From NCBI GenBank assembly GCA_028716385.1, contig JAQUPX010000004.1, forward strand, positions 49,936-113,935: 64,000 nucleotides of DNA, in the 5' to 3' direction. Position numbers and translations under genes: made by a program. The number at the start of each line of letters is the position of its first letter. Within the stretch, counting starts at the first letter, position 1. The stretch is from a bacterium (GTDB lineage: Bacteria; Hydrothermota; UBA3073; JACQXS01; JAQTXJ01). The notes under the pieces are model-generated. The model saw only the letters and a program-made list of their open reading frames with translations, was not told the DNA's origin and did no database searches. Positions 508 to 36,006 of the stretch are shown piece by piece.

Positions 508-1200
508 ATGGACTTAAATGCTTTATATAATATAGGTTATGGGATGTATATCGTTAGTTCTAAAAGTGGAGATAAATTTAATGGGCAGATTGCAAATACC
601 GTATTCCAGATTACTGCAGAACCGCCTACAATAGCGATTAGTATAAATAAACAAAACCTTACTCATAAGTTTATTGAAGAAAGTAAAATTTTTACTATTT
701 CAATATTGTCAAAAGAGACTCCAATTAAGTTCATAGGGGATTTTGGGTTTAAATCAGGCAAAGAAATAGATAAGTTTAAAAGTGTAGAACATAAAGTTAG
801 TTCAAACGGAACGCCTATAGTGACGGAAAATACAATAGGTTATGTGGAAGCTAAAGTGGTAAACAGTCTTGATATGGGAACGCATACTATATTTGTTGGT
901 GTAATCGTAGATGCGGAGACAATAAAAAAAGAAGAACCTATGACGTATGCTTATTATCATACGGTAAAACGAGGGACATCTCCCAAAACAGCGCCTACTT
1001 ACATTAAGCCTGAAGTAGCTCAGCAGACAAAAGGGATGGAGAAATATAAATGTAAAATTTGTGGATATATATATGACCCACAAAAAGGGGATGCGGAATC
1101 AAATATTAAACCCGGGACTTCTTTTGATGAATTGCCAAAAGATTGGTTATGCCCGATATGTGGAGCAGACAAATCAGAGTTCATAAGGGAGGGAAAATGA
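508..1200 (+). CDS. Flavin-reductase-like FMN-binding domain fused to C-terminal rubredoxin (high-molecular-weight rubredoxin, Hrb-like)
   Basis: N-terminal flavin reductase-like region ([32 protein letters not shown]). C-terminus [13 protein letters not shown]...[13 protein letters not shown] has two CxxC rubredoxin knuckles. AGGAGG just upstream. Confidence 0.8.
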
Positions 1201-1775
1201 GTAAGAGTTTAAAAGGAACGAAAACGGAGAAGAATTTATTAAAAGCGTTTGCAGGAGAATCACAAGCACGGAATAGGTATACATATTTTTCATCGCAGGC
1301 AAAGAAAGAAGGCTTCGAACAAATATCGGCTATCTTTACGGATACTGCAGACAACGAGAAGGAACATGCAAAAAGATTGTTTAAGTTTTTAGAAGGCGGT
1401 GATTTAGAGATTAGTGCGGCATTCCCGGCGGGAAAAATTGGAGAGACTGCAGAGAACTTAAAAGCATCTGCCGAAGGTGAAAATCATGAATATACGACTA
1501 TGTATCCTGAGTTTGCGCAGATAGCAAAAGAGGAAGGATTCAATGAAATCGCACAGGCATTTAGAGCAATAGGAGAGGCAGAAAAGGGACACGAAAAAAG
1601 GTACTTAGATTTACTTGAAAACATTAAGAAAAATAGAGTTTTTAAGAGAGAGAAGGCTGTTAAATGGAGATGCAGGAATTGCGGATATATTCACGAATGT
1701 GATGAAGCTCCTGAGAAATGTCCGGCATGCACACATCCAAAAGCATATTTTGAATTATTGAGTGAAAATTATTAG
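1197..1775 (+). CDS. rbr: Rubrerythrin
   Basis: Di-iron helix motifs ([28 protein letters not shown]) plus C-terminal rubredoxin-like WRCRNCGY...CPAC. The ATG at 1197 overlaps the upstream stop (ATGA); the track start at 1143 lies inside the upstream gene. Confidence 0.9.
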
Positions 1776-3802: not shown

Positions 3803-5959
3803 TTACACTTTTTCTGCTTTTAGTTTTAGGTTGCCTTTTTCCAGCAGTTCCATTTGGATAATTCCTTTCTCAGGATTAAAGATACAATGAGTAGTATATT
3901 TTGGGGATATGTGTTTTCCAAATAATACGCTGATTGTTCCGTCTATATGTATGTCTCCATTTGCCTTATGATTAGCTATATATTTCCCGATAAGTTCAGG
4001 CGGGGGAATTATAAAACTAAAAAAGTTTATAACTGCTTTTGGGAAACGTGAAAAAAGTAAATTTATAGGAAGTTTTTTGCTCCAGTTAATTGCTTTTTCT
4101 TCAACATAAGGGAATCTTGAAAAACCTAAGTTTAATGTATAAAGTGCCGTATTATGTGTCCCTCTGAAATTCAATAGGCTAAAAACACCATTATAAATTG
4201 TAAAATTAGAGGTGTTTTCTTTGTTCGAAACGATAGAAAAATTACCCCATAAATCTACTTTTATAGTCCATTTTTCATCAAAAGTTTTTTCATCTTTTCC
4301 CGAGTAATCCGTTACTTTAAACATATAAGTATTATTCAAATTGAATTTCAGCATATCCTGTAATCTTAATTGTGGTTTCAGGGATACTACAGTATCATCT
4401 TTTTCGGGTATTCCGGAGTGCATAAAATCGGAAGTGTTTTTAATTAGGTAATTAACGATATTTGCTTTAATCGTAGGAGAGCCCGGTTCAGAAGTAGTTT
4501 GTAGTTGCAGGTGTAAATGAGGGATAGCCGATCGTCCCGAATTTCCGCAGTGTGCGATTATTTCACCTGTTTTTACGTACTGTCCGATTACTACTTTAGT
4601 ACTTCCTTTTTTTAAGTGACACAGCAATAAAAATATGTTTGGAGCATATTGAAGAACAATTAAGTTTCCCCAGTTGTCTTTAGTGTTTATGTGATTTATC
4701 GGGTTATCTTCTATATTGTTTATTATTTTAACTACAGTGCCGTTTATGGGGGCAATAACAGGTTTATCAAAACAATAAAAGTCTTTTTGTTCCGTCCCTG
4801 AGTTTTTAAATTTTGATTTATTTTCGTCCAGCACTTCAAAATCCCAGGCATAAGCCCATTGCAGTTTGTGAGTTGGTTCGTCGTTGTATCCCTGTGTAAC
4901 GGTCCACTCTCCGTTAAAGGGAAGGTAAACCGGGTATAAGCCTTCTTCGGATATTTTTGTGATTTTTGAATAATAATACTCAAGGCTTTCTTCAGGTGTA
5001 TTGGAGAAAAAATCAATAAAATAAGGGTGTAAATTTTTAGTTCGCAATCTGAATGCATAAATGACCGTAAGAACGATAAAATTGAAAGGAATGGCTAAAA
5101 CAGGGATATCAAAAATATCAAATGCGTTTTCAAGAGAAAGTCCTATGAATGCGCCTGCGCAGCTTGTAATAGCGGCGATTAGAAAAGATGAAACGGAAGG
5201 TACAAAAAATACTCCGCCTATGGCTATTGCAGTTAAAATGAAATTGAATCCTGCCAGTATAATTGATAATTCGCTGAAAGAAGTATTGAGTAAAAATAAG
5301 TAGCCCATTGCAAATCCTATTAACGAAAGGAGAAAAGCGATTCTTGAGTGCAACAGAATTGCCAGTGCTATAAGCAACCCTCCTATAAGATTGGGCTGGA
5401 AAAATATGCCTCCTATACTTTTGAGATATATAGAGAACCAGTTTTGTAAAGCCGGGTTCCAGTTAATTAGAATGCGATGCGTGTGATGCAATAGTGTTCC
5501 TTGAATTTCGTTGTAAAACAGGCAGGTTAAAACAGCCATAATAACAAAAGGAACGCTTAAAGAGGGTAGCGCCAATTGTGAACGAAAAGACTGGGAGAGT
5601 GTTATTGACAGCATAGTTGTGATGACTGAACTAAGGATAATAAAAAACAATAAGAACAACCAACTTTCGCTTGCTATTCCCGGGTAGAAATAGCCTATTC
5701 CTAAAGATACAAGTAAACTGTTGAAACTATGGAATCCCGAATTATCTTTCCAGTCAGTAAAATTTAATAGTCTTGCTATAAGAATGGCCGTAATTGTCCC
5801 TATTACTCCACAAAGGCCTACAATAGGAGTATTTAAAGTTGCCAGCAATAATATGAGTCCAATCCAGCGGTTATTTGAGAACAGGATAATAGAATAAGAA
5901 TGCAGAAAAGAATTGGTAATAGGGAGTAATAAATTATTATAATTCTTATTCATATTCAT
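3803..5959 (-). CDS. Multi-pass membrane protein: urea-transporter-like domain + M23-like metallopeptidase domain + unknown C-terminal domain
   Basis: N-terminal ~310 aa is hydrophobic with UT-family pattern (SIILFSNNRWIGLILLLA, SGFHSFNSLLVSLGIGYF). The middle carries M23 motifs (NGTVVKI, WGNLIVL, CHLKKGS, GNSGRSAIPHLHLQLQ). Last ~220 aa unrecognised. Confidence 0.7.
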   Translation of the reverse strand: MNMNKNYNNLLLPITNSFLHSYSIILFSNNRWIGLILLLATLNTPIVGLCGVIGTITAILIARLLNFTDWKDNSGFHSFNSLLVSLGIGYFYPGIASESWLFLLFFIILSSVITTMLSITLSQSFRSQLALPSLSVPFVIMAVLTCLFYNEIQGTLLHHTHRILINWNPALQNWFSIYLKSIGGIFFQPNLIGGLLIALAILLHSRIAFLLSLIGFAMGYLFLLNTSFSELSIILAGFNFILTAIAIGGVFFVPSVSSFLIAAITSCAGAFIGLSLENAFDIFDIPVLAIPFNFIVLTVIYAFRLRTKNLHPYFIDFFSNTPEESLEYYYSKITKISEEGLYPVYLPFNGEWTVTQGYNDEPTHKLQWAYAWDFEVLDENKSKFKNSGTEQKDFYCFDKPVIAPINGTVVKIINNIEDNPINHINTKDNWGNLIVLQYAPNIFLLLCHLKKGSTKVVIGQYVKTGEIIAHCGNSGRSAIPHLHLQLQTTSEPGSPTIKANIVNYLIKNTSDFMHSGIPEKDDTVVSLKPQLRLQDMLKFNLNNTYMFKVTDYSGKDEKTFDEKWTIKVDLWGNFSIVSNKENTSNFTIYNGVFSLLNFRGTHNTALYTLNLGFSRFPYVEEKAINWSKKLPINLLFSRFPKAVINFFSFIIPPPELIGKYIANHKANGDIHIDGTISVLFGKHISPKYTTHCIFNPEKGIIQMELLEKGNLKLKAEKV

Positions 5960-6000
5960 AACTAATAGGATATGATTTGGTTATAAATTAAACTTGAATA

Positions 6001-7350
6001 TTATGACAGATTCAGGTGTTTAGGTAATTTTTCTTTATGAAGTATGTCTTTTAAGGTTTCTTTTTCGCGTATTATTTCAACGTCGCCGTTTACCGTAATA
6101 AGTACAACATTTGGGCGATAAGTTATAAACTGCATCCACTGGGTTACATTGTATGCGCCTACAGGTGATATGATGACGGCATCTCCTATTTTTAAGTCAG
6201 GGAATCTTATTCCATGTCTCATAACGTCAATATTCATACATAATGGCCCATAAATTACCGTATTTTCTATTGTTCCCGTGATTGGCTGTGCAGGAGTGAA
6301 TTTATGTTTATACCAGTTAGATGTGTACAGTATATTAACGCCCGCATCCAATATTAATGCTTTTTGCCCATCAACAAGAGTTTTTTTACCTATAACGGAA
6401 GATACTAAATAACCTGCTTCGTCTATTAATGCTCTTCCTGATTCAAGGAATAGAGTAGGCTGGTTTTTTCTGCAGAAAGGTGATTCGTTAAAAGCTTTTC
6501 CTATGGCTTCAGCATATTGTTCTATGTTTGGTGAAGCTATATCCCCGGGTAAATATTGTTCACATAAGGTATTATTTGAAGCGATTCCGCCTCCAAGGTC
6601 TATGAATTGTAAAGTAATTCCGAAATCAGTTTCAATATAACCGGCCAAGTTAAGTAGTTTTGCGGCGGCTATGTAATAAGCGTTTGGTTCTAATATAAAA
6701 GTTCCTATATGTGTATGCAAACCTATAAGTTCAAGTTTATTCCCGGTTACGATTCGCTGGACTGCCCTGTATGCTTCTCTGTTTTCGTAATTGAACCCGA
6801 ATCTACTCCATTGAGGGTAAATTCCGGTATCCATATTTACGCGAACTCCAACGCGAGGCTTTTTGCCAAGTTCTACGGATATTTCTTCAAGTAAAAATAG
6901 CTCATCAAGATGGTCAATATTTATAGTTGCCTCTTCAGAAACTGCTTTTAGTAAGTCGTTTTTAGTTTTACTTGGTCCGTTGAATATGATTTTTTTCCCG
7001 GGGATTCCGAGTAATCGCGCTCTTTCGTATTCCATCCCGCTAACTACTTCTGCCCATGCGCCTTCCTGATGGAATGTAGCGCAAATTGCCTGAAGATAAT
7101 TTGTCTTGTATGACCATCCGAATTTGACATTAGGATAATGAAGACTGAATGCTCTTTGTGCTTCTTTGAATTTCCATCTGATAGATTTTTCCGAGAATAC
7201 AAATAAAGGAGAGCCATAGTTTTCAATTAGCGCTTTTATTGGAATTTCATCTATATTATCCTGATAGGAAGGGACGCTGGTTGCGAATTTTCCGGGTGCG
7301 CCTGCAACTTTTCTCTCAATAGTCGGTGCGTAATAAGATTTTTTAGCCAT
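6001..7350 (-). CDS. PLP-dependent decarboxylase, Orn/DAP/Arg decarboxylase (fold-type III) family
   Basis: PLFVFSE...SYKTNY (PLP-lysine position), HTHIGT, IDLGGG, GPLCMNIDV (catalytic Cys position). 2-nt gap to the upstream ATP-grasp gene. Confidence 0.8.
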   Translation of the reverse strand: MAKKSYYAPTIERKVAGAPGKFATSVPSYQDNIDEIPIKALIENYGSPLFVFSEKSIRWKFKEAQRAFSLHYPNVKFGWSYKTNYLQAICATFHQEGAWAEVVSGMEYERARLLGIPGKKIIFNGPSKTKNDLLKAVSEEATINIDHLDELFLLEEISVELGKKPRVGVRVNMDTGIYPQWSRFGFNYENREAYRAVQRIVTGNKLELIGLHTHIGTFILEPNAYYIAAAKLLNLAGYIETDFGITLQFIDLGGGIASNNTLCEQYLPGDIASPNIEQYAEAIGKAFNESPFCRKNQPTLFLESGRALIDEAGYLVSSVIGKKTLVDGQKALILDAGVNILYTSNWYKHKFTPAQPITGTIENTVIYGPLCMNIDVMRHGIRFPDLKIGDAVIISPVGAYNVTQWMQFITYRPNVVLITVNGDVEIIREKETLKDILHKEKLPKHLNLS

Positions 7351-7352
7351 AA

Positions 7353-8468
7353 TTAGCCTCCTTTATTGTCCATAAATTTGCTTTTTCTTTTAGTTACCGG
7401 TTTGGTTCTTAAATCGTGTAATTCTCCTATGGAAGTTAGTTCGCCCATTGTAGCAATGTCCAATATTATATCTTCGCTGTGTCTGACAAATATTTTACCT
7501 ACCGTGTATTTTTTTAACGGTGTAATTTTTTCGCCAAGCGCAAGTTTTACAAGTATTTCAGGAATATTTTGGCCTGCTCCTATAGCGAGACCTATCCATG
7601 CGGGAAGGCGTGGATTTATTTCCAGCAAGTAATATTGTTTATCTTTATTGGATTTTAATATTTCGAGTTCCAAAGGGCCACGCCATTTGAGACTTTTCAT
7701 TATATTTTTTGTAAATTTATCCAATGTGGCATCTTTAATAACAACAGCAGCAAATCCTTTCCCTTTTTCGGTTACAACGGTTTTTTTGATGGGAATGCTG
7801 CATACAATATTTCCTTTCCCGTCTCCGATTGCAGATACATTATATTCTTCGCCTGCAAGAAATTCCTGTATTATAATAGGTAATCCCCATTTGGCTCTCA
7901 GGGAGTTGAAGTATTTTGTGATTTCTTCCGTGTTATGGGCTTTATAAGCTTCGTAGAATCGTCCTTTTACCATAACGGGCAGTGTCATTTTTTCCGGAAT
8001 CTTATAAGCCTGTGCGGTATCGTTTATTAGTAATACTTTAGGGGTCAGTATACCGAAGTTTTCGTTTAATTTACCAAGTTCCGTTTTATCCCGCATCATA
8101 AATTGTTCTCTTGTGGGGAGGTACATTTTTATGCCATAAGATTTCAGTTTATTTTCTAAGCTTATATAAGGCAGTAATTCGGAATCAAGTGTTGGGACAA
8201 GAACGTCTATTTTTGTGTGTACGGTCATTATGTATTCAAGTCTTGCCATTATTGCATCAGCGCCTTCCGAAGGATAAGGCATTTCATAAACTTCATCCGC
8301 CATATCCGGCGCATAAATCCCGGATTCAAAAGAATCATAGACAAGACCTATTATTTTGCCCGTAAATCCTGCTTTTCTGAGAGACCTTATAACAGGAACG
8401 CCGGGTTGTGGATTTTCGCCTGCATTTAAACCGGTTACTGCAATTACAAGTTCTTTTGGGATAGTCAT
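7353..8468 (-). CDS. ATP-grasp family carboxylate-amine ligase
   Basis: Pre-ATP-grasp N-terminus (VIAVTGLNAGENPQPGVPVIRSLRKAG), central LPVMVKGRFYEA..., IIIQEFLAGEEY, C-terminal LELEILK...YYLLEINPRLPAW (the E-x-N metal site typical of ATP-grasp). Confidence 0.8.
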   Translation of the reverse strand: MTIPKELVIAVTGLNAGENPQPGVPVIRSLRKAGFTGKIIGLVYDSFESGIYAPDMADEVYEMPYPSEGADAIMARLEYIMTVHTKIDVLVPTLDSELLPYISLENKLKSYGIKMYLPTREQFMMRDKTELGKLNENFGILTPKVLLINDTAQAYKIPEKMTLPVMVKGRFYEAYKAHNTEEITKYFNSLRAKWGLPIIIQEFLAGEEYNVSAIGDGKGNIVCSIPIKKTVVTEKGKGFAAVVIKDATLDKFTKNIMKSLKWRGPLELEILKSNKDKQYYLLEINPRLPAWIGLAIGAGQNIPEILVKLALGEKITPLKKYTVGKIFVRHSEDIILDIATMGELTSIGELHDLRTKPVTKRKSKFMDNKGG

Positions 8469-8470
8469 TT

Positions 8471-8755
8471 TTATTTTTTAAATTTTTTGGCTAATTCTTT
8501 GTCGGTTTCTTCATATAAACTGTATTGTTTTAATTTAACGATAAAAGAGTTATAATCTCTTTTTATCTGGTCTTCTGTGACATCATAGTTATCCATAATA
8601 TGTTTAATTATTCCCGACTCATCCATTCCTCTTTTTAAACAGCTCAGGATTTCCATACTAATTTCATTAACTGTGTAACTGTGTCCGGTTTGCGGGTCAA
8701 ACAAGAACCCATTTTCGCTCATAGCGAGTCTTTTGAAATTGTCATTAGTTCCCAT
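8471..8755 (-). CDS. PqqD-family small protein (RiPP-recognition-element-like fold)
   Basis: 94 aa. GFLFDPQTGHSYTVNEISMEILSCLKRGMDESGIIKHIMDNYDV..DQIKRDYNSFIVKLKQ fits the PqqD pattern. AAGGAGGG SD. 2-nt gap to the ATP-grasp gene. Confidence 0.65.
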   Translation of the reverse strand: MGTNDNFKRLAMSENGFLFDPQTGHSYTVNEISMEILSCLKRGMDESGIIKHIMDNYDVTEDQIKRDYNSFIVKLKQYSLYEETDKELAKKFKK

Positions 8756-8833
8756 AAACCCTCCTTATAAATCAGATATCAAAAATTAAATATTAAAAAT
8801 CAAATATTTTTACGAAACGAATACGATTTTTTG

Positions 8834-9277
8834 TCATTTGGATTTAGTGTCTATATTTTTAATAGTATTAAAATACCCTGTCTGGTAAAAAGTAGCGTCT
8901 TCTAGATGGTACCCTCTTTGTTGGCACCAGTAGCAATCTTGTATGGCACAATCTTTTTTCTCTACTTTTTTGCCCCATAGTGCTATTTCGTAGGATGATC
9001 CGTATTGGGATGCAAGCTTGTTGTCAATTGCAAAAGCCTCTATGAAGTTACCCTTTTTTATTTCTCTTGTTATATGGCGTCCGTCTTTTGTTGCATCTGT
9101 GACCGTTGCAGGGTATAAAGAAACTCCCAACCACTCGTTTTTATCAACAACGCCGGATATTAATATGCTGGAGGGAATGCCTTCTTTGTATTCAATCGTT
9201 ACTTTTACAGAACTCTGAGCATAGGTTAATAATGCAACAAAAAGCAAGCAACAAACAGCAATAGATTTTCTTAACAT
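8834..9277 (-). CDS. Small secreted protein, unknown function
   Basis: Signal peptide MLRKSIAVCCLLFVALLTYAQS. Cys cluster CAIQDCYWC near the C-terminus. No family recognised. Confidence 0.5.
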   Translation of the reverse strand: MLRKSIAVCCLLFVALLTYAQSSVKVTIEYKEGIPSSILISGVVDKNEWLGVSLYPATVTDATKDGRHITREIKKGNFIEAFAIDNKLASQYGSSYEIALWGKKVEKKDCAIQDCYWCQQRGYHLEDATFYQTGYFNTIKNIDTKSK

Positions 9278-9332
9278 ATTTTCCCCCTTTTTCTAGTTAG
9301 ATACATATTCTGTATAAAAAGTTCCATAAATG

Positions 9333-10115
9333 TCAAATGTTAATTTTTAATCCTATTGAACAATAGGTTATATCATATATCTCAAAAACATCTTTTCCGC
9401 CAATACCTATTAATTGGATTCTTTTATTGAGGTCGTATTTAATTTTCCCTGCGATTTTCATTTTTTCTATGTCCGGGCGGTTATTAATTATTAACAGCCT
9501 ATCATCTACGTTGTAAAACCCTTTTCCATAAGCTGCGCTTATTTCCATATTGAATTTTGTCCAGAAACTTCCATCATAGAGTATATTTGAAGATATGGTA
9601 AGAGGAAAAGAAAAATATTTTTCAGTTTCTGCAATCGTGCAAGAAACTCCCGGCATAAGCCATATTTTTTTATGGAGTAAGAATCTGAGTTCAGGATTGA
9701 TCCGGTGTACGGCATAAGATATTTTACCGTCCCAATATTGTCTTACGTAGCAGGAGAATGCATATCCAAGTGTGTATATAGGATTATAACCGTAAAGCAG
9801 ACGGGTGCTGAGAGTTGTGGAAGTATTTTCGTATGAATCCAATATATGGAATCCGACAACTCTTATTCCCGTTAAATGTAGTATTTCTCTACTGTATCCC
9901 AAGGAGAACATATCTTGCCTGAAAACTGTTGGTTGCCAGTTTTCCGAGTAATTATCATAAGCGAATGTAAAGTAGTTTTTTTTATAATCCATTGTCCAGT
10001 AAGTAGAAATTGAGTTGCCCGAGATATTCATTGATGTGTCCGGGAATGCTCGAATATTACTGTGAGTAAAATAAAACTGTGGAGAGAGTAGGGTTATTAA
10101 AAAATGGATAAACAT
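9333..10115 (-). CDS. Hypothetical protein, possible outer-membrane beta-barrel
   Basis: Alternating aromatic/polar pattern, ends in a hydrophobic beta-strand (CSIGLKINI). Start moved to the ATG at 10115, which forms a TAATG stop/start overlap with the upstream gene. Confidence 0.5.
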   Translation of the reverse strand: MFIHFLITLLSPQFYFTHSNIRAFPDTSMNISGNSISTYWTMDYKKNYFTFAYDNYSENWQPTVFRQDMFSLGYSREILHLTGIRVVGFHILDSYENTSTTLSTRLLYGYNPIYTLGYAFSCYVRQYWDGKISYAVHRINPELRFLLHKKIWLMPGVSCTIAETEKYFSFPLTISSNILYDGSFWTKFNMEISAAYGKGFYNVDDRLLIINNRPDIEKMKIAGKIKYDLNKRIQLIGIGGKDVFEIYDITYCSIGLKINI

Positions 10116-10744
10116 TAATGCAGAACTCTTACCGTAACCATTGAGTTTGCCCAATTATTACTTGGGTCATAAGCTTTTGCCAGTATGGTGTAGGAGTTGT
10201 TGGGTAGAGGCATAGTATCCCATAAATATGTAAAAGGCTTGGTTGTGGATGTGGAAATAGAATCTCCGTTTACATAAAATACGACTTTTGATACATCTTT
10301 GTTGTCTGATGTCTCAGTTTTAACTTCAACCGTACCGGTTACGGCAGCGCCAGATGCGGGAACCGTTATAGCAATCATAGGAGGTTCGGTATCTGTGGTA
10401 TCTAAAATGAAGACATTAACTATATCAGAAAGTCCGTAATTGTCTTCATTATCGTAAGCTTTGGCAAATATAGTATGAGAATTTGGATTACTGCTTACAG
10501 AGCAGAGAGAGGAATAAGGGGTAGTTGTATCCGTAGAGAAAAGATCGCCATCTATATAGAATTCAACTTTTTTAATTTTTATATTATCAATAGCTTCTGC
10601 TTTTATTTCGAGAGTGCCTTCTATATATATATTGTTTGGCGGATAGGTTATGATTACTTCAGGAGATTCAGTATCTCTGCTTTTACAGCCTGTTAATAAT
10701 ACGACAAAGAAAACAACAGGTAAGAGAGAATAACGTTTTAACAT
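10115..10744 (-). CDS. Lipoprotein with two bacterial Ig-like domains
   Basis: Lipobox LLTGC after MLKRYSLLPVVFFVV (start chosen at Met25 of the track ORF). Two ~80-aa repeats (V.FY.DG...ST.TT.P....W...........I.AKAYD..N). Confidence 0.6.
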   Translation of the reverse strand: MLKRYSLLPVVFFVVLLTGCKSRDTESPEVIITYPPNNIYIEGTLEIKAEAIDNIKIKKVEFYIDGDLFSTDTTTPYSSLCSVSSNPNSHTIFAKAYDNEDNYGLSDIVNVFILDTTDTEPPMIAITVPASGAAVTGTVEVKTETSDNKDVSKVVFYVNGDSISTSTTKPFTYLWDTMPLPNNSYTILAKAYDPSNNWANSMVTVRVLH

Positions 10745-10819
10745 TAGAGTATTAGTATAAGAAAAATGGTTGTTTGTCAAGAGGGGAATTTTTTTAGAAT
10801 TAGAAGCCGTATGCATTAT

Positions 10820-12391
10820 TTAATCTAACAAAATCATTTTCTTAGTAAGGGTATTACTGCCGGTTTTTAACCTATAGAAATATATACCCGATGAGACTCT
10901 TTTATTCTGGCTATTCATCCTGTTCCATTTAGCCGTGTAACTGCCCGGGGTTAAATTCCCATTAACTACTGTTTTCACTAAAATTCCAGCTTTATCGTAA
11001 ATACAAAGGGAAACATAACTTTCTTTCGGTATCGTATACTCAATAGAAATTCCATATTTTGTGGGGTTGGGGTAACTTTGGTGTAATACTATATTCTGTG
11101 GTGTTTCGGTTTTTTGTTCCTCTACGGCAGCTAATACAAAAAAGGAATCGGTGTTCCCAATAGAAGGCATACTTGTTGAATCAGAGTACAAAAACGCTAC
11201 ATTTGATGGAGGCGGTAAATAGCCAAGGGAATCAGCTATGGTTTTTATTTCCTGCTTCTGCGTACTGTCCAGAGTTTCCCACACTTTAGTAAAATAAGTT
11301 GCATAATAATAACAAAGTGCTCCATCCAGCTCCCCATACTTTTCAGATAAGTTCAACACCGTATCACTGTCAGCTTTTCCTCCTGTCATAAATTTTCTTA
11401 ATTCTATAGATATGTCACGTCTTCTATCAACAATATGGTACACAAATGAATCAACTTTCTGAGTATCTACCAATCCTGTTACCAGAGGAGCTTGCGAACC
11501 ATTAAGAACTGCCAGAAAATCCTGTCCTGCAGTTGCCGTCAATTGTTCGTTTATGCTGTAATTCGGATTACCCATAGCAGGCCAGTCTTTTAAGTAGAAT
11601 CCCCCAAAGCAATCTCCCTGTCGTTCCGGACAAAAATAAACGTCTGCATCAACAGAACCTGCATACCAGCTGTACATTTCAGTCGCATAGGTCATTAAAC
11701 CTTGCCCCACCTCACGAGGAAGATGTAAAGTATCTACAGGATTTATAAGAGTGGTATCCCAATTACCTATCCCGCCCAAAGTTTTTAAATTATCCAGTGC
11801 TGTTTTTTGTCCTATTGTCATAGAATTTAAGATTTCGCCAAACAATTTTTCACGGTTATAACTGATTTGTCCGTCAATGCGGTATAATTGCCCCGAATAC
11901 TCCATAACCACTCTTTTGTTTAATCCTTTGCTACCTGTAGGCACGTCTCCATCCAGCAAACGACGGAATGTTTTCATCATAGGGAATCTGAAATATGCAT
12001 ATTCATTTATAAGGCTTGCCTGGTTTTGGGCTCTTGCTATCAGAGTACCAATTTGTTCTGCGTTTAGAATATGAAGAACATTATTGGAAATTATTGTTAC
12101 AAATGCCGTGTTGTGTCCCATACTGGTAGGATCGTTGTCACGCAGGTACTGGAATCCGGAGAAATCTGCTACTTTCCCGGGAGGAAGAAAAGATTGCGAA
12201 CCTAAGTTTCCCGTCAGAAAAGCAAGCCCATCAAAAGCGATTGTGTTTCTCTGGGCTCCATCCGAAAGGGTTTGGTCAATTGTATACGCATCTTTGGATA
12301 CGGATGCTATAGAGAAAAACGGGAATAAAGCAAAAAATATACTTAGGATACAAACAGATGTCTTTAACTTACGAAATGTTTCGCTTTTCAT
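10820..12391 (-). CDS. Secreted protein of unknown function with T9SS-type C-terminal sorting domain
   Basis: Signal peptide from the internal Met (MKSETFRKLKTSVCILSIFFALFPFFSIA). C-terminus YPNPTKYGISIEY...IYD..G...SGIYFYRLKTGSNTLTKKMILLD is the Por/T9SS CTD pattern. Confidence 0.6.
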   Translation of the reverse strand: MKSETFRKLKTSVCILSIFFALFPFFSIASVSKDAYTIDQTLSDGAQRNTIAFDGLAFLTGNLGSQSFLPPGKVADFSGFQYLRDNDPTSMGHNTAFVTIISNNVLHILNAEQIGTLIARAQNQASLINEYAYFRFPMMKTFRRLLDGDVPTGSKGLNKRVVMEYSGQLYRIDGQISYNREKLFGEILNSMTIGQKTALDNLKTLGGIGNWDTTLINPVDTLHLPREVGQGLMTYATEMYSWYAGSVDADVYFCPERQGDCFGGFYLKDWPAMGNPNYSINEQLTATAGQDFLAVLNGSQAPLVTGLVDTQKVDSFVYHIVDRRRDISIELRKFMTGGKADSDTVLNLSEKYGELDGALCYYYATYFTKVWETLDSTQKQEIKTIADSLGYLPPPSNVAFLYSDSTSMPSIGNTDSFFVLAAVEEQKTETPQNIVLHQSYPNPTKYGISIEYTIPKESYVSLCIYDKAGILVKTVVNGNLTPGSYTAKWNRMNSQNKRVSSGIYFYRLKTGSNTLTKKMILLD

Positions 12392-12601
12392 CTTATCCCC
12401 CTTATTTTTTAGATATTCATTCTTTAGATACAAATAATATAAAAATAGTTCCAAGTTTTTTGTTTCTTGTGTTATATAGGTTGAAAGTTTGGATGTTAAA
12501 AAATAGAAAACATAAAAAAAATATCACAAAATAACATAGCCACTTGACAAATTATCAAAGAAGTATCATAAATATAATATATTATTTTAAGAATGACGAA
12601 T

Positions 12602-12664: not shown

Positions 12665-15055
12665 ATGCGTAAAATAATGTCTATCGTGTTTTTATTAGTG
12701 ATTTGTCCTATGTTAGTAAATGCAGGAAAGACTACGATACTTACTCCTGCAAGCGCGTATAAACCTATGAATTTTGGTGGCAATAAGGGAACTATTGATA
12801 CTTTGCATCCTCAATGGGATGCTTTTAAGATAGGTTGGAAATACACTTATAGAGTCGAATATGAGGCAACACAACTTACACCTGTTGCGGCATGTTCTGT
12901 TTTTGCGATATGTCACGGGGTTTCATCCAGATATACGAATTCATCAAAACAATGCAGCGTTTTTATTTGGGATAATTTGGTAGAAGCACCGGGAGAAGTG
13001 CTTTACAAGGCAAGAGTTACTGCTACCTCCACTACACCATCACAGGTTAGTTATAACTGGTATACTATAAATCCCCCTATATATGTTACAGGTCCTTTTT
13101 GGGTAGGAAATTATGAAATGGATACGCTTTATCCTACATCATCCGTAGATACCATTCTTACCATTCCGGGAACGAGTGCTTATATAGGCGCATCAGGATG
13201 GACGGCAGACAATGGTGATTATTACCAGGCAGCGGCTGTAAACTATAATGTATCAGCAGGAGATATTAGCGTGTCTCCAACTTCTTTAGAGTTCCAGATA
13301 GACAGTAGTTCAGCGAAGGGGATGCAATTATTGGCTCCTACCGTTTGTAAAGCAAATATAGAAGACGAGGCTTATTGGAAAGATATAGTGCCCGGTGAAG
13401 TAATAATTGGATATAAGAATGCGATTGATGTAAAGAAAGCAACTTTAAGTCAGCTCGGAATTGCGGAAAAAGGCATAACCGTAAAAAATAAAAATATGGG
13501 AGATAATTTTATACTTGTTAAGGTAAGTGGTGATATAGCAGAAGAAAAAGCTTTTGTAAAGCGTATGTTAGCGAGACCGAATGTGAGTAGTGCAGAACCG
13601 AACGGTATAACCAGACCTTTCAAGAATCCGAACGATCCGTATTTTGCTTCATATCAATGGGACAAAAGGAGTTTAAAGGCTCCTGAAGCTTGGGAATATG
13701 GATGGGGCAGTGATGCTATTTCGTTAGCAATAGTTGATAATGGGTCGCAATACTCTCTTGCCGATTTAAGTCCCAGGTATGGTACTGTTAAAGGAAGAGA
13801 TACATGGGCAGATGATGATGACCCTAAGCCGGAAACTCCAACAACGGAATATCACGGAACACATTGTTCTGGAATTGCAATGGCTACAGTTAATAACGGC
13901 ATAGGTATTGCCGGATATTCAAATTCAAGACTTTATTCAGTGAGGGTGATGGAAGCGGGCGGTGGGGATCTTGCAGCACTTGCGGATGGAATACAATGGT
14001 GTATAGATAATGGTGTAAAGATATTATCTATGAGTATGGGAGGAACTTCTTCTTATGCTTTTATTGCAACTAAATGTATAAATGCATGGAATGCGGGATG
14101 TCTTCTTTTTGCTGCATCCGGGAATTATGGAGTAGAACCCGTTGCATATCCTGCAGGATATAATGGGGTTATAGCAGTAGGCAATATAGCTTCCAATGAT
14201 GTCCGGGATTCTCAGAGTAATTATGGTTCGGCGTTGAAGTTTGTTGCGCCCGGTATGGGAATAGCGTCTTATTTTCCGGATGGGAATCTTAACCAGTTAG
14301 CAGGGACATCTATGGCGTGTCCGCAGGTTGCGGGTGGTGCAGCGCTTGTGTGGTCGGCGAATCCATCATTAACAAATGCGGAAGTAAGGGATATACTAAT
14401 TAATACGGCGACAGATCTTGGAACTACGGGTTGGGATAAGTATTATGGGTACGGTAAGCCCGATCTTCAGAAAGCAGTTGAAGCGGCAATGACAGGGATA
14501 AATAATCCTGCGGATACAGGAATGTTAACCGTTTATAATTCGTCCTCTGCAACCGGGGCTTTATGTGTTACGGATATTACACATAAGCAAAGCTGGATTA
14601 AGTCTGTGGACCCGAAAGTTTTTAATGTAGCGATTGGTAGTTCCAATGGAGTTACGGTTATAGTTCAAGCTGCACTTCCACTGGGAACGTATTACGATAC
14701 TTTGTTGATAAGATCAACGGATACGGATAAAGACCCGTTAGCCGTACCGGTTACTCTTACCGTTGCTAGTACTGCAATTGAAGAAATGAAAACTTCTGAA
14801 TTTAATTTCAGAGTTTTAAACAATCCGACTACGAAGTTTGTAGGTATCAGTTTTAATATTCCTGATGCCAAGAATGTTACATTAAAAATGTATGATGCGG
14901 GCGGAAGAAATGTAAAAACGCTTATTGATAATTCTAATATAAGTGGCAGTTATAATTCAAAAATTAGTATTGGGACTTTGAGTTCGGGAATATATTTTGC
15001 TGTGCTGCAAGTTGGAGATAGACGGATAAGCAAAAAGATTACGTTGGTGAGGTAA
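12665..15055 (+). CDS. Subtilisin-like serine protease (peptidase S8) with T9SS-type C-terminal sorting domain
   Basis: Catalytic triad contexts AIVDNG (Asp), HGTHCSGIA (His), GTSMACPQVAG (Ser). Signal peptide present. C-terminal GIYFAVLQVGDRRISKKITLVR CTD. GGAGGGG SD. Confidence 0.85.
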   Translation: MRKIMSIVFLLVICPMLVNAGKTTILTPASAYKPMNFGGNKGTIDTLHPQWDAFKIGWKYTYRVEYEATQLTPVAACSVFAICHGVSSRYTNSSKQCSVFIWDNLVEAPGEVLYKARVTATSTTPSQVSYNWYTINPPIYVTGPFWVGNYEMDTLYPTSSVDTILTIPGTSAYIGASGWTADNGDYYQAAAVNYNVSAGDISVSPTSLEFQIDSSSAKGMQLLAPTVCKANIEDEAYWKDIVPGEVIIGYKNAIDVKKATLSQLGIAEKGITVKNKNMGDNFILVKVSGDIAEEKAFVKRMLARPNVSSAEPNGITRPFKNPNDPYFASYQWDKRSLKAPEAWEYGWGSDAISLAIVDNGSQYSLADLSPRYGTVKGRDTWADDDDPKPETPTTEYHGTHCSGIAMATVNNGIGIAGYSNSRLYSVRVMEAGGGDLAALADGIQWCIDNGVKILSMSMGGTSSYAFIATKCINAWNAGCLLFAASGNYGVEPVAYPAGYNGVIAVGNIASNDVRDSQSNYGSALKFVAPGMGIASYFPDGNLNQLAGTSMACPQVAGGAALVWSANPSLTNAEVRDILINTATDLGTTGWDKYYGYGKPDLQKAVEAAMTGINNPADTGMLTVYNSSSATGALCVTDITHKQSWIKSVDPKVFNVAIGSSNGVTVIVQAALPLGTYYDTLLIRSTDTDKDPLAVPVTLTVASTAIEEMKTSEFNFRVLNNPTTKFVGISFNIPDAKNVTLKMYDAGGRNVKTLIDNSNISGSYNSKISIGTLSSGIYFAVLQVGDRRISKKITLVR

Positions 15056-23945: not shown

Positions 23946-24021
23946 TGGTCGGGGAGACAGGACTCGAACCTGCGACCCCATGGTCCCAAACCATGTGCGC
24001 TACCAACTGCGCTACTCCCCG
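23946..24021 (-). tRNA. tRNA-Pro (anticodon TGG), CCA encoded
   Basis: The reverse complement folds as a cloverleaf: acceptor CGGGGAG/CTCCCCG, D arm GCGC/GCGC, anticodon stem CATGG/CCATG with loop TTTGGGA, T arm GCAGG-TTCGAGT-CCTGT, then A-CCA. Confidence 0.9.
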
Positions 24022-35914: not shown

Positions 35915-36006
35915 GGAGAGATGGCCGAGCGGCTTAAGGCAAACGATTGCTAATCGTTTGTAGGGGTAATTCCTTACCGAGGGTTCGAATCCCTCTCTCT
36001 CCGCCA
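35915..36006 (+). tRNA. tRNA-Ser (anticodon GCT), class II long variable arm, CCA encoded
   Basis: GGAGAGA acceptor, GCCGAGCGG D-loop, anticodon stem AACGA/TCGTT with loop TTGCTAA, long variable arm, GGTTCGAATCCC T-arm, TCTCTCC-G-CCA. Confidence 0.9.

Follow-up and report, generated by a model that had tools for sequence, protein, structure and literature searches.

Organization of the operon

We analyzed a 64,000-nucleotide stretch of DNA (hereafter the window) from a bacterium of the Hydrothermota (GenBank assembly GCA_028716385.1, contig JAQUPX010000004.1, positions 49,936 to 113,935 of the forward strand). An earlier note, made from the letters alone, had singled out four minus-strand genes at 3803-8755 as a candidate undescribed amide-ligation and envelope-delivery system. 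Open reading frames (ORFs) were determined and the window proteins were scanned against Pfam and NCBIfam (release 20); loci of relatives are numbered below with the prefix L and proteins from profile searches with the prefix P. The first gene (8471..8755, minus strand) encodes a 94-aa PqqD-like protein of the type that serves as a recognition element (RRE) for peptides made on ribosomes and modified after translation (RiPPs) (Pfam PqqD, 8.5e-12), and a Shine-Dalgarno-like AAGGAGGG (8759..8766, minus strand), read from the sequence, lies just 5' of its ATG at 8755. On the same strand follow a 371-aa ATP-grasp amide ligase with an E-I-N-P-R motif like that of carbamoyl-phosphate synthase (CPS) and biotin carboxylase (7353..8468; Pfam ATPgrasp_Ter, 3e-13), a 449-aa pyridoxal phosphate (PLP)-dependent decarboxylase with the alanine-racemase fold and a FigC/FslC-like pocket (6001..7350; Pfam and PDB matches), and a 718-aa fusion protein (5959-3803). 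The fusion consists of a urea-transporter-family (UT) channel domain (residues 1-304; 5048..5959, minus strand; Pfam UT, 1e-56), a M23/LytM-type metallopeptidase domain that is predicted to be cytoplasmic (residues ~340-500; 4460..4942, minus strand; Pfam Peptidase_M23, 8e-13), and a C-terminal beta-rich domain that belongs to no Pfam family (residues ~501-718; 3803..4459 with the stop codon included, minus strand).

The gaps between the four core genes are 2, 2 and 41 nt. These spacings, the gene coordinates and the ribosome-binding site agree with what the earlier note had read, Pfam confirmed its domain calls for all four proteins, and the two motifs that it had quoted, SYKTN (as GWSYKTN) and GPLCMNID, are found in the decarboxylase. 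It had also reported that no acyl carrier protein (ACP), siderophore synthetase of the NIS type, radical SAM enzyme or visible precursor peptide accompanies the genes; Pfam detected none of the three proteins in the neighborhood, and no small ORF is conserved in 85 related loci. What had been overlooked is the ~220-residue beta domain after the peptidase domain and three to four upstream genes (8834-12454), which probably share an operon with the core four. NCBIfam has no family-specific name for any of the core proteins, all matches being far under the curated cut-offs, and a scan for promoters and terminators gave counts not above those of shuffled controls.

Conservation and phylogenetic distribution

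A collection containing one genome per species was scanned, yielding at least 571 relatives, and 85 related loci were compared, of which 74 were long enough to carry both PqqD and UT. Gene order and strand are the same in all 74, and the median gaps measure -8 nt (PqqD/ligase), 19 nt (ligase/decarboxylase) and 9 nt (decarboxylase/UT). The same order was seen in the first three distant neighborhoods, a Latescibacteria-type contig, a 3.1-Mb Cloacimonadota-type genome and a groundwater Bacteroidales contig, and the flanking genes are unrelated among Latescibacteria, Cloacimonadota, Bacteroidales, Algoriphagus, WOR-3 and a 1.5-Mb genome (L088). The 80 best of the at least 571 relatives comprise 58 Bacteroidota, 12 Cloacimonadota, seven Ignavibacteriota or 'Chlorobi', two Myxococcota and one WOR-3; overall, the class with the M23 domain (class 1) is spread over Bacteroidota, Ignavibacteriota, Cloacimonadota, WOR-3, Latescibacteria and Myxococcota, and cultured species of Algoriphagus have the operon. 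Relatives of the ligase number 2934 at E<1e-10, with 48-72% identity across phyla.

The four genes are thus a co-inherited conserved module and not a chance cluster. The earlier note had named two ways in which its proposal could fail, namely that homologous loci split the genes or that the ligase and the decarboxylase are orthologs of housekeeping enzymes. Neither is the case, because the colinear loci extend across phyla with different flanks, where the genes stay together in 74 out of 74, and the decarboxylase scores under the lysA and FslC cut-offs and has the Arg and Glu that bind diaminopimelate (DAP) replaced.

The decarboxylase

The decarboxylase matches Pfam Orn_Arg_deC_N (1e-29) and Orn_DAP_Arg_deC (2e-13). 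Its closest solved structure is the N-citrylornithine decarboxylase FslC/FigC (7KH2, 6.6e-61), followed by LysA (1TWI, 2e-42; archaeal and Aquifex enzymes, ~1e-42 to 1e-40) and then BtrK (about 1e-30 to 2e-30). The motifs SYKTN (PLP-binding Lys), DLGGG, ESGR and GPLCM (catalytic Cys) are present, and they are at least 90% conserved in 83 sequences. In FigC, the DAP-binding R343 is replaced by T327, T330 and Y331 and an acidic residue by M355, and H357 has been proposed to bind citrate (PMC7857480). The window enzyme has Thr at the residue aligned with R343 of Methanocaldococcus jannaschii LysA, as does FigC, and its loop after the catalytic Cys reads C-M-N-I, compared with C-E-S in the M. jannaschii enzyme and C-M-Q-H in FigC; the C-M-N portion resembles C354-M355 of FigC, and the H357 position is occupied by Ile. 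The T..Y of the specificity helix and the loop GPLCM[NQ] occur in all 11 sequences compared, which were drawn from class 1 and from the sister class described below (class 2). Judged from its T..Y helix and C-M-N/Q loop of the FigC type, the decarboxylase is not LysA. An identity with LysA is further ruled out by a sub-cut-off score (219.7 bits against TIGR01048, cut-off 297.9) and by the Thr and Met at the DAP-binding Arg and acidic positions. An assignment as FslC/FigC was rejected as well, on account of the score (245 bits against NF041039, cut-off 500), the Ile at the H357 position and the absence of an NIS synthetase from every locus examined.

FigC, SbnH, AcsE, MccE and BtrK are clade-2 enzymes whose substrates are amino acids in conjugates or on carriers, and those members of the clade that are not DAP decarboxylases have been predicted to serve in specialized-metabolite or siderophore pathways (PMC7857480). 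The window enzyme falls in this clade. From the type of its pocket, the substrate of the window enzyme is most likely an amino acid whose distal end sits in an amide.

The ATP-grasp ligase and the PqqD-like protein

Pfam assigns the ligase to ATPgrasp_Ter (PF15632, 50 bits, cut-off 29), with additional matches to ATP-grasp_3 and CPSase_L_D2. Residues K168, E283, N285 and R287 are invariant, and the ATP-binding Lys and the Mg-binding E-x-N are thus kept. By profile, the nearest relatives are domains of the CPS type, the best PDB matches being the CPS large chain and the uncharacterized 2PN1; the score against the NCBIfam 'CPS-like protein' model is 92 bits, with a cut-off of 390. A ligase profile run on 1.8 billion representatives matched 369 proteins at E<1e-30, and Pfam analysis of selected matches revealed many tandem double ATP-grasp proteins of ~710-720 aa.

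The PqqD-like protein scores 45.7 bits against PF05402 (cut-off 23.4), and NCBIfam returned only sub-threshold models of PqqD-family chaperones. An ortholog is present in 84 of the 85 loci, where it usually overlaps the start of the ligase gene. Rosetta-stone fusions join PqqD to ATP-grasp (P0336) and ATP-grasp to the decarboxylase (P0295), which ties the three cytoplasmic proteins together functionally and casts PqqD in the part of a ligase adaptor. The sequences suggest that the PqqD-like protein, which the earlier note had holding the amide product, is likely an adaptor subunit of the ligase rather than a carrier. A role as a LysW-like carrier was considered and is not generally supported by the C-terminal tails, which are acidic on average and not strictly conserved. 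In locus L173 (8681-13583), which pairs PqqD with an ATP-grasp::decarboxylase fusion, the gene that follows codes for a protein of 637 aa, the C-terminus of which resembles class III nucleotide cyclases, by eye only.

The UT::M23 membrane protein

The UT domain is a genuine member of its family. The Pfam UT match covers residues 17-302 (192.8 bits), the match to a profile of the bacterial channel dvUT has an E-value of 1e-49, and the FN..L motifs of both halves are kept; the score against the Yut equivalog TIGR03441 is 117.5 bits, with a cut-off of 274.6. In Foldseek comparisons the domain matched dvUT and mammalian UTs with template-modeling (TM) scores of up to 0.85 (target-normalized, 3ME1). 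An AlphaFold2 model of the whole protein, built from 56 sequences, has a mean predicted local distance difference test score (pLDDT) of 90.9 and a predicted TM-score of 0.83, and resolves the UT domain (~10-304), a linker helix, the M23 domain (~340-500) and the beta-rich domain (~501-718), which reached a pLDDT of 95 when modeled alone.

The Pfam Peptidase_M23 match spans residues 398-492, and hhalign aligned the domain with lysostaphin at 97% probability. Residues H364, D373, H448, H481 and H483 are invariant in the 56 sequences, and they include the HxH motif and the catalytic H448. For the beta-rich domain, Foldseek gave weak LolA/YmcC-like matches only, the best being 3FZX and LolA at TM-scores of 0.3-0.36, and no firm assignment of a LolA/YmcC-like fold was made.

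On the UT-B topology, the window protein has seven Lys/Arg residues on the predicted inner side and two on the outer side. Because of this positive-inside count, the topology itself and the presence of SIR2 and GNAT domains at the same position in the sister class, the M23 domain and the C-terminal beta domain are most likely cytoplasmic. The M23 domain is therefore probably not a peptidase of the envelope, sitting instead at the cytoplasmic end of the UT domain.

A sister class with a UT::SIR2 fusion

A second class of loci, for which our survey rests on five genomic contexts, carries a sirtuin (SIR2) in place of the M23 domain. Its gene order, TPR lipoprotein - PqqD - tandem ATP-grasp - decarboxylase - UT::SIR2, is repeated in a soil contig, Nitrospinota, Planctomycetota and Betaproteobacteria; the TPR proteins have lipoboxes, and the second ATP-grasp module is sometimes degenerate. 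The UT::SIR2 family comprises ~60 clusters from Rokubacteria/Methylomirabilota, Nitrospinota, Anaerolineae, Planctomycetota and Betaproteobacteria. The SIR2 domain (Pfam, 6e-35) is that of a catalytically intact deacylase: all of 23 UT::SIR2 proteins keep the GAGxS and QNxD motifs, the catalytic His and the Cys4 zinc site. In L174 (7233-9344), the locus of the PqqD+ligase fusion, the membrane protein is a single UT::SIR2::GNAT polypeptide, and in L092 (10640-12105) genes for a NAD synthase (NadE) and a RimJ/RimL-type GNAT directly follow UT::SIR2. Both arrangements fit a stoichiometric use of NAD and acetylation of a freed amine.

SIR2 and GNAT need NAD+ and acetyl-CoA, respectively, and the C-terminal end of the UT domain therefore probably faces the cytoplasm, with the M23 domain placed likewise by homology. 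The occurrence of two unrelated amide-cleaving enzymes at one position argues that what is conserved is the cleavage of an amide beside the pore. Each of M23 DD-endopeptidases, sirtuins and FigC works on a dibasic residue that bears an amide at its omega-amine, and by analogy this common chemistry may point to an intermediate of the N-omega-acyl-ornithine, -lysine or -DAP type.

A metagenome scan with the UT::SIR2 profile, in which the patterns were sirtuin motifs, returned 80 generic sirtuin loci and none with the cassette. Sirtuin domains could also indicate anti-phage defense; this was dropped, PADLOC giving no match for the four window proteins, for the upstream proteins p147 and p260 or for UT::SIR2. 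A sigma-54 two-component pair (HisKA kinase and NtrC-type activator) lies divergently beside the class 2 operon in two phyla (L089, 4172-7029; L090, 39-2884).

Partner genes around the core

Upstream of PqqD, on the same strand, the window encodes three probable accessory components. The first, p147 (8834..9277), is a secreted 147-aa protein outside any Pfam or NCBIfam family, with an invariant KDCxIxDCYWCxxxGxHL motif; Latescibacteria (L001/L002) and WOR-3 (L087) have homologs with 44-51% identity immediately upstream of PqqD. With its three Cys and single His, the motif could bind a metal or form disulfides. The second, p260 (9333..10115), is a Tyr-rich and possibly beta-barrel envelope protein whose position is kept in L001 and L087 at 32-36% identity. 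The third is a lipoprotein with two Big_7 Ig-like domains (10115..10816; Pfam Big_7, 3e-33), which holds the same place in L001/L002 and L087. Its stop codon overlaps the likely ATG of p260 (10115) as TAATG (10113-10117, minus strand); the ORF list had placed the p260 start at a TTG 13 codons earlier, giving 273 aa. The Big_7/p260/p147 trio thus recurs in three lineages, those of the window, the Latescibacteria and WOR-3. A fourth gene (10820..12454, minus strand) encodes a 544-aa protein (p544) with the C-terminal sorting domain of the type IX secretion system (T9SS) (Por_Secre_tail, 3.7e-07); a gap of 3 nt separates its end from the Big_7 gene, with which it may be co-transcribed, and its membership is uncertain.

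Two further families of partners emerged from the clustering of ORFs. TPR207, a secreted TPR protein of ~207 aa, is encoded on the same strand as the core in 63 loci. TPR459 (~460-500 aa, 44 loci) has an N-terminal TPR region and a Tyr/Gly-rich C-terminal half ending in ...GGITWKL/F in the way of outer-membrane barrels, and in most of its loci it starts -3 to +5 nt from the UT::M23 stop codon; TPR207 comes after it or, where TPR459 is absent, abuts the UT::M23 stop. The window is without these TPR partners because the genes downstream of its core (RsfS, LytR_C and NTP-transferase) are convergent. The earlier note had the operon end with the channel fusion; in most lineages it continues into these secreted, signal peptide-bearing TPR and barrel-like proteins. 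The C-terminal half of TPR459 had no match in PDB or in any family, and we call it a barrel from sequence features only. An equivalence of this half with p260 was pursued, with an HMM match of 3e-5 and an hhalign probability of 47% from two sequences that fell to 1.4% from three; it is unproven.

Other neighbors vary with lineage. T9SS-tail proteins adjoin the core in 27 of the 74 loci, and one ~265-aa family among them occurs in eight Bacteroidota loci. Linked T9SS cargo was rejected as a core part: it is lineage-specific, and p544 shares only the sorting domain with neighbors elsewhere. A 197-aa AraC-family regulator with an HMA-like N-terminus is encoded ~90-230 nt upstream of PqqD in 26 Bacteroidota loci (L018-L033 and related), and in ~10 Bacteroidales loci of this set PBP2 and RodA lie just upstream. 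The HMA-like region was weighed as a clue to metals and found weak, its CxxC motif being only partly conserved. In the 1.5-Mb genome (L088, 12145-14489), a MBOAT + DUF1574-like pair with overlapping starts is inserted between UT::M23 and the TPR gene, an arrangement suggesting that this lineage may acylate a polymer outside the cytoplasm.

Comparison with known systems

The earlier note had stated that the gene combination matches none of the butirosin, vibrioferrin and tabtoxin pathways. This holds for all three and also for rhizoferrin, whose defining features the operon lacks. A close parallel is butirosin (BtrI/BtrJ/BtrK, with BtrG/BtrH), which has the same order of a small protein of ~87 aa, an ATP-grasp enzyme and an alanine-racemase-fold decarboxylase, and in which an amino acid tethered through its side chain is decarboxylated on the tether and later released by an amide-cleaving enzyme. 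However, the small protein here is PqqD/RRE and not a phosphopantetheine ACP (no PP-binding match in Pfam or NCBIfam), an aminoglycoside acceptor is missing, release would fall to an enzyme fused to UT, and the genes form a multi-phylum operon rather than an antibiotic cluster. The rhizoferrin system of Francisella (FslA/FslC, or FigA/FigC) likewise decarboxylates a conjugate after amide formation on the omega-amine of ornithine, and the two decarboxylases have in common the Thr/Tyr specificity helix and the Cys-Met loop; unlike it, the present system uses an ATP-grasp ligase instead of an NIS synthetase, lacks H357, and has neither an exporter of the major facilitator superfamily (MFS) nor a receptor. 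In LysW/LysX an ATP-grasp enzyme loads an amino acid on a small carrier, several steps take place on the tether and a metallopeptidase releases the product, whereas here no C-terminal acceptor of the EDWGE type is conserved and the ligase belongs to the CPS-like and not the RimK/LysX branch.

Microcin C biosynthesis (the decarboxylase::GNAT protein MccE, and MccF) combines a clade-2 decarboxylase acting on a peptide conjugate with a RimL-type GNAT, fused or adjacent in class 2 as well, and a peptidase that cleaves the conjugate, but the loci studied here lack an MccA-like peptide gene, the adenylating enzyme MccB and any nucleotide chemistry. Pathways to RiPPs that depend on an RRE (PqqD/PqqE, lasso B1, the ATP-grasp ligase PGM1 of pheganomycin) share the stand-alone or fused PqqD-type domain next to a modifying enzyme, and differ in their linked precursor gene and their radical SAM enzyme, cyclase or YcaO, all absent here. 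Synthase-dependent exopolymer export systems (PgaA, BcsC, PelB, AlgK/AlgE) resemble the operons that end in a periplasmic TPR protein, in Bacteroidota with a half like an outer-membrane (OM) barrel, but no glycosyltransferase synthase is present and the barrel is assigned from sequence features only. The dvUT and Yut urea channels, finally, have the same fold and FN..L signature motifs as the UT domain, which differs from them in being fused to enzymes, in scoring under the Yut cut-off and in not conserving two polar pore residues. A search of the open-access full-text literature found no paper on this gene set, on which a survey of RREs (PMC12710340) is also silent. Within the limits of that literature and of the curated families of NCBIfam and PADLOC, the system appears to be undescribed.

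Proposed function of the operon

The operon probably marks an unrecognized route to a small amine or amide compound that is passed into the envelope, and we propose that the core four genes are the cytoplasmic and inner-membrane part of an envelope-spanning operon. In outline this bears out the reading of the earlier note, with three changes: a probably cytoplasmic peptidase, an operon of more than four genes and a sister class bearing a sirtuin. Tentatively, with a chance that we put somewhat below even, an amino acid would be put on a tether by the ligase through an amide bond and decarboxylated while attached, and the product would then be set free by the amide-cleaving domain where the UT channel opens. 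In the first step, the ATP-grasp ligase, with PqqD/RRE as its substrate-recognition subunit, would form an amide between the side chain of an amino acid and the carboxylate of a partner, which is probably peptide-like. With the alpha-amino-acid end left free, the attachment would most likely be at the omega-amine of an ornithine-, lysine- or DAP-like residue, the arrangement in N-citrylornithine; alternatively, the tether might be gamma-Glu, like that of BtrJ/BtrK. The FigC-like decarboxylase would then take the alpha-carboxylate off the tethered residue. In the third step, the M23 or SIR2 domain, at the cytoplasmic mouth of a trimeric UT-type channel, would free the amine or amide product beside the pore, and in the sister class GNAT, where present, would acetylate the freed amine. 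The product would go to the periplasm, where secreted partners may use or relay it (TPR proteins with or without an OM barrel; in the window, Big_7, p260 and p147).

A bolder and more doubtful version sees a new envelope machine in which biosynthesis is coupled to a UT-fold pore, an RRE-guided ligase and a decarboxylase building a unit on a tether and an amidase (M23 or sirtuin) freeing it into the pore. In its boldest form, the gamma-Glu ligation and decarboxylation that BtrJ/BtrK carry out once might be iterated to yield a linear polyamide that leaves through the slot-like UT pore and out via the TPR/OM-barrel partners, much as synthase-dependent systems secrete their polymers.

Several observations count against this tether-and-release scheme. 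Clustering of the ORFs of 18-80 aa outside the large genes in the 85 loci and the window recovered only antisense shadows of PqqD, and the C-terminal tails of PqqD, 0 to 14 residues long, are net acidic in 60 of 73 distinct sequences while some have no Asp or Glu at all. One locus (L173) has PqqD and the fused ligase and decarboxylase with no UT gene. The channel retains most of its pore-lining Phe and Leu residues but not the counterparts of dvUT Q24 and E187, which we take to be polar residues of the pore, and to our knowledge UT channels are known for small neutral amides and not for charged diamines. The canonical first zinc-ligand His of M23 (HxxxD) is not conserved and ~20 residues are inserted after the Asp, so that hydrolytic activity of the domain is assumed only; its cytoplasmic placement is, in turn, predicted. 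A sirtuin would leave the acyl group on ADP-ribose and a M23 enzyme a free acid, so that for the two classes to be equivalent either the amine side must be the product or the acyl-ADP-ribose must be recycled.

The best-placed alternative, which we hold to be unlikely, does without a tether: a small acid would be joined to ornithine or lysine and decarboxylated to an N-acyl-diamine, for instance a polycarboxylate siderophore or some other metabolite, with PqqD as a structural subunit and the UT-fused hydrolase maturing, recycling or detoxifying the product. The decarboxylase is indeed most similar to the rhizoferrin enzyme FslC, but Ile occupies the position of FigC H357. Siderophore and specialized-metabolite roles have been predicted for clade-2 enzymes (PMC7857480) and the AraC-type regulator with the HMA-like N-terminus precedes the operon in 26 Bacteroidota loci, yet the operon has no conserved association with an NIS synthetase, a TonB-dependent receptor or an MFS exporter, and identities of at least 50% across phyla with a fixed gene set would be unusual for specialized metabolism. 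The RRE-ligase fusion and a SIR2 of the protein-lysine-deacylase type suit a peptide-like substrate better.

Less probable again is a remodeling of envelope precursors, in which a stem peptide or lipid-linked precursor would be altered at a dibasic residue or given an amine and trimmed by cytoplasmic M23 or SIR2, after the manner of the Van systems, with their ligase, substrate-supplying enzyme and LAS-type peptidase, or of the attachment of cadaverine to peptidoglycan. M23 is a family of peptidoglycan peptidases, the decarboxylase descends from DAP decarboxylases, and cell wall genes do occur nearby: SLT+LysM directly upstream in a Cloacimonadota genome, PBP2-RodA upstream in the ~10 Bacteroidales loci, and MurJ two genes upstream in L088, where the MBOAT + DUF1574-like pair interrupts the operon. 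These neighbors, however, vary by lineage and are absent in most, amounting to weak enrichment at best, and many relatives with ordinary peptidoglycan lack the system, which is therefore not part of core wall synthesis. The C-terminal domain is LolA-like but weakly so (TM ~0.3), and the UT channel would be left without a role.

A RiPP-type pathway with a remote precursor gene, M23 or SIR2 as the leader or maturation enzyme and UT as a mere membrane anchor is, in our view, very improbable. RiPP clusters often contain ATP-grasp peptide ligases and leader peptidases of the M families, and the PqqD/RRE protein scores over its Pfam threshold and is fused to a modifying enzyme in P0336. In or near the 85 loci, however, no ORF of 18-80 aa is conserved, the core gaps are too short to hide one, and the system is therefore not a conventional RiPP cluster. 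The gene set is also uniform over at least 10 phyla, without the variability usual for RiPP clusters, and the UT pore is too narrow for peptide export.

Uptake, catabolism or sensing is scarcely credible. The UT domain, a family member with conserved pore Phe/Leu positions, might import urea or a small amide or supply ammonia for assimilation, or the fused domain might gate the channel; the similarity of the ligase to CPS-type ATP-grasp domains and the sigma-54 two-component system in two class 2 loci could be accommodated. But urea or amide assimilation is not known to involve M23, SIR2 or an amino-acid decarboxylase, the operon is not linked to a urease, an allophanate hydrolase or a biotin carrier, the UT domain is far under the Yut cut-off (117 versus 275 bits), and the secreted partners would be left unexplained. 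Coincidental adjacency of a housekeeping LysA and a RimK/Ddl-type ligase to an unrelated transporter, which has only the generic database names 'carbamoyl-phosphate synthase large subunit' and 'urea transporter' in its favor, can be dismissed in view of the synteny survey (74 of 74 colinear loci across phyla with different flanks), the gene fusions, and a decarboxylase that is under the lysA cut-off and without the DAP-binding residues.

Implications and other features of the window

The M23-class operon is carried by at least ~570 species-level genomes, and the sister class is found in Methylomirabilota, Nitrospinota, Planctomycetota, Chloroflexota and Betaproteobacteria; databases label the genes of the operon only 'urea transporter', 'carbamoyl-phosphate synthase large subunit' and 'diaminopimelate decarboxylase'. 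If the proposed tether-and-release route is true, it would be the first role of a UT fold as the outlet of a biosynthetic assembly, and would involve a cytoplasmic use of M23, a biosynthetic bacterial sirtuin and a RiPP-recognition domain outside RiPPs. It would also correct a widespread mis-annotation in metagenome-based metabolic models, which score these genes as CPS, urea uptake and lysine synthesis. Carriers in culture include Algoriphagus marinus, A. kandeliae, Draconibacterium orientale and Melioribacter roseus, so that direct testing is possible.

Proteins with a T9SS sorting domain flank the operon divergently: the product of 10820-12454 (minus strand) has no other domain, and that of 12665-15055 (plus strand) is a S8 subtilase with a fervidolysin-like prodomain. 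From these two proteins we infer that the organism has a T9SS. Riboswitches and leader RNAs were sought with Rfam at gathering thresholds, which returned nothing in eight diverse loci and, in the window, only two distant tRNA genes, at 23949-24021 (minus strand) and 35915-36003 (plus strand). At 508-1775 (plus strand), a flavin-reductase::rubredoxin fusion is encoded beside a rubrerythrin, a combination typical of oxidative-stress protection in anaerobes.

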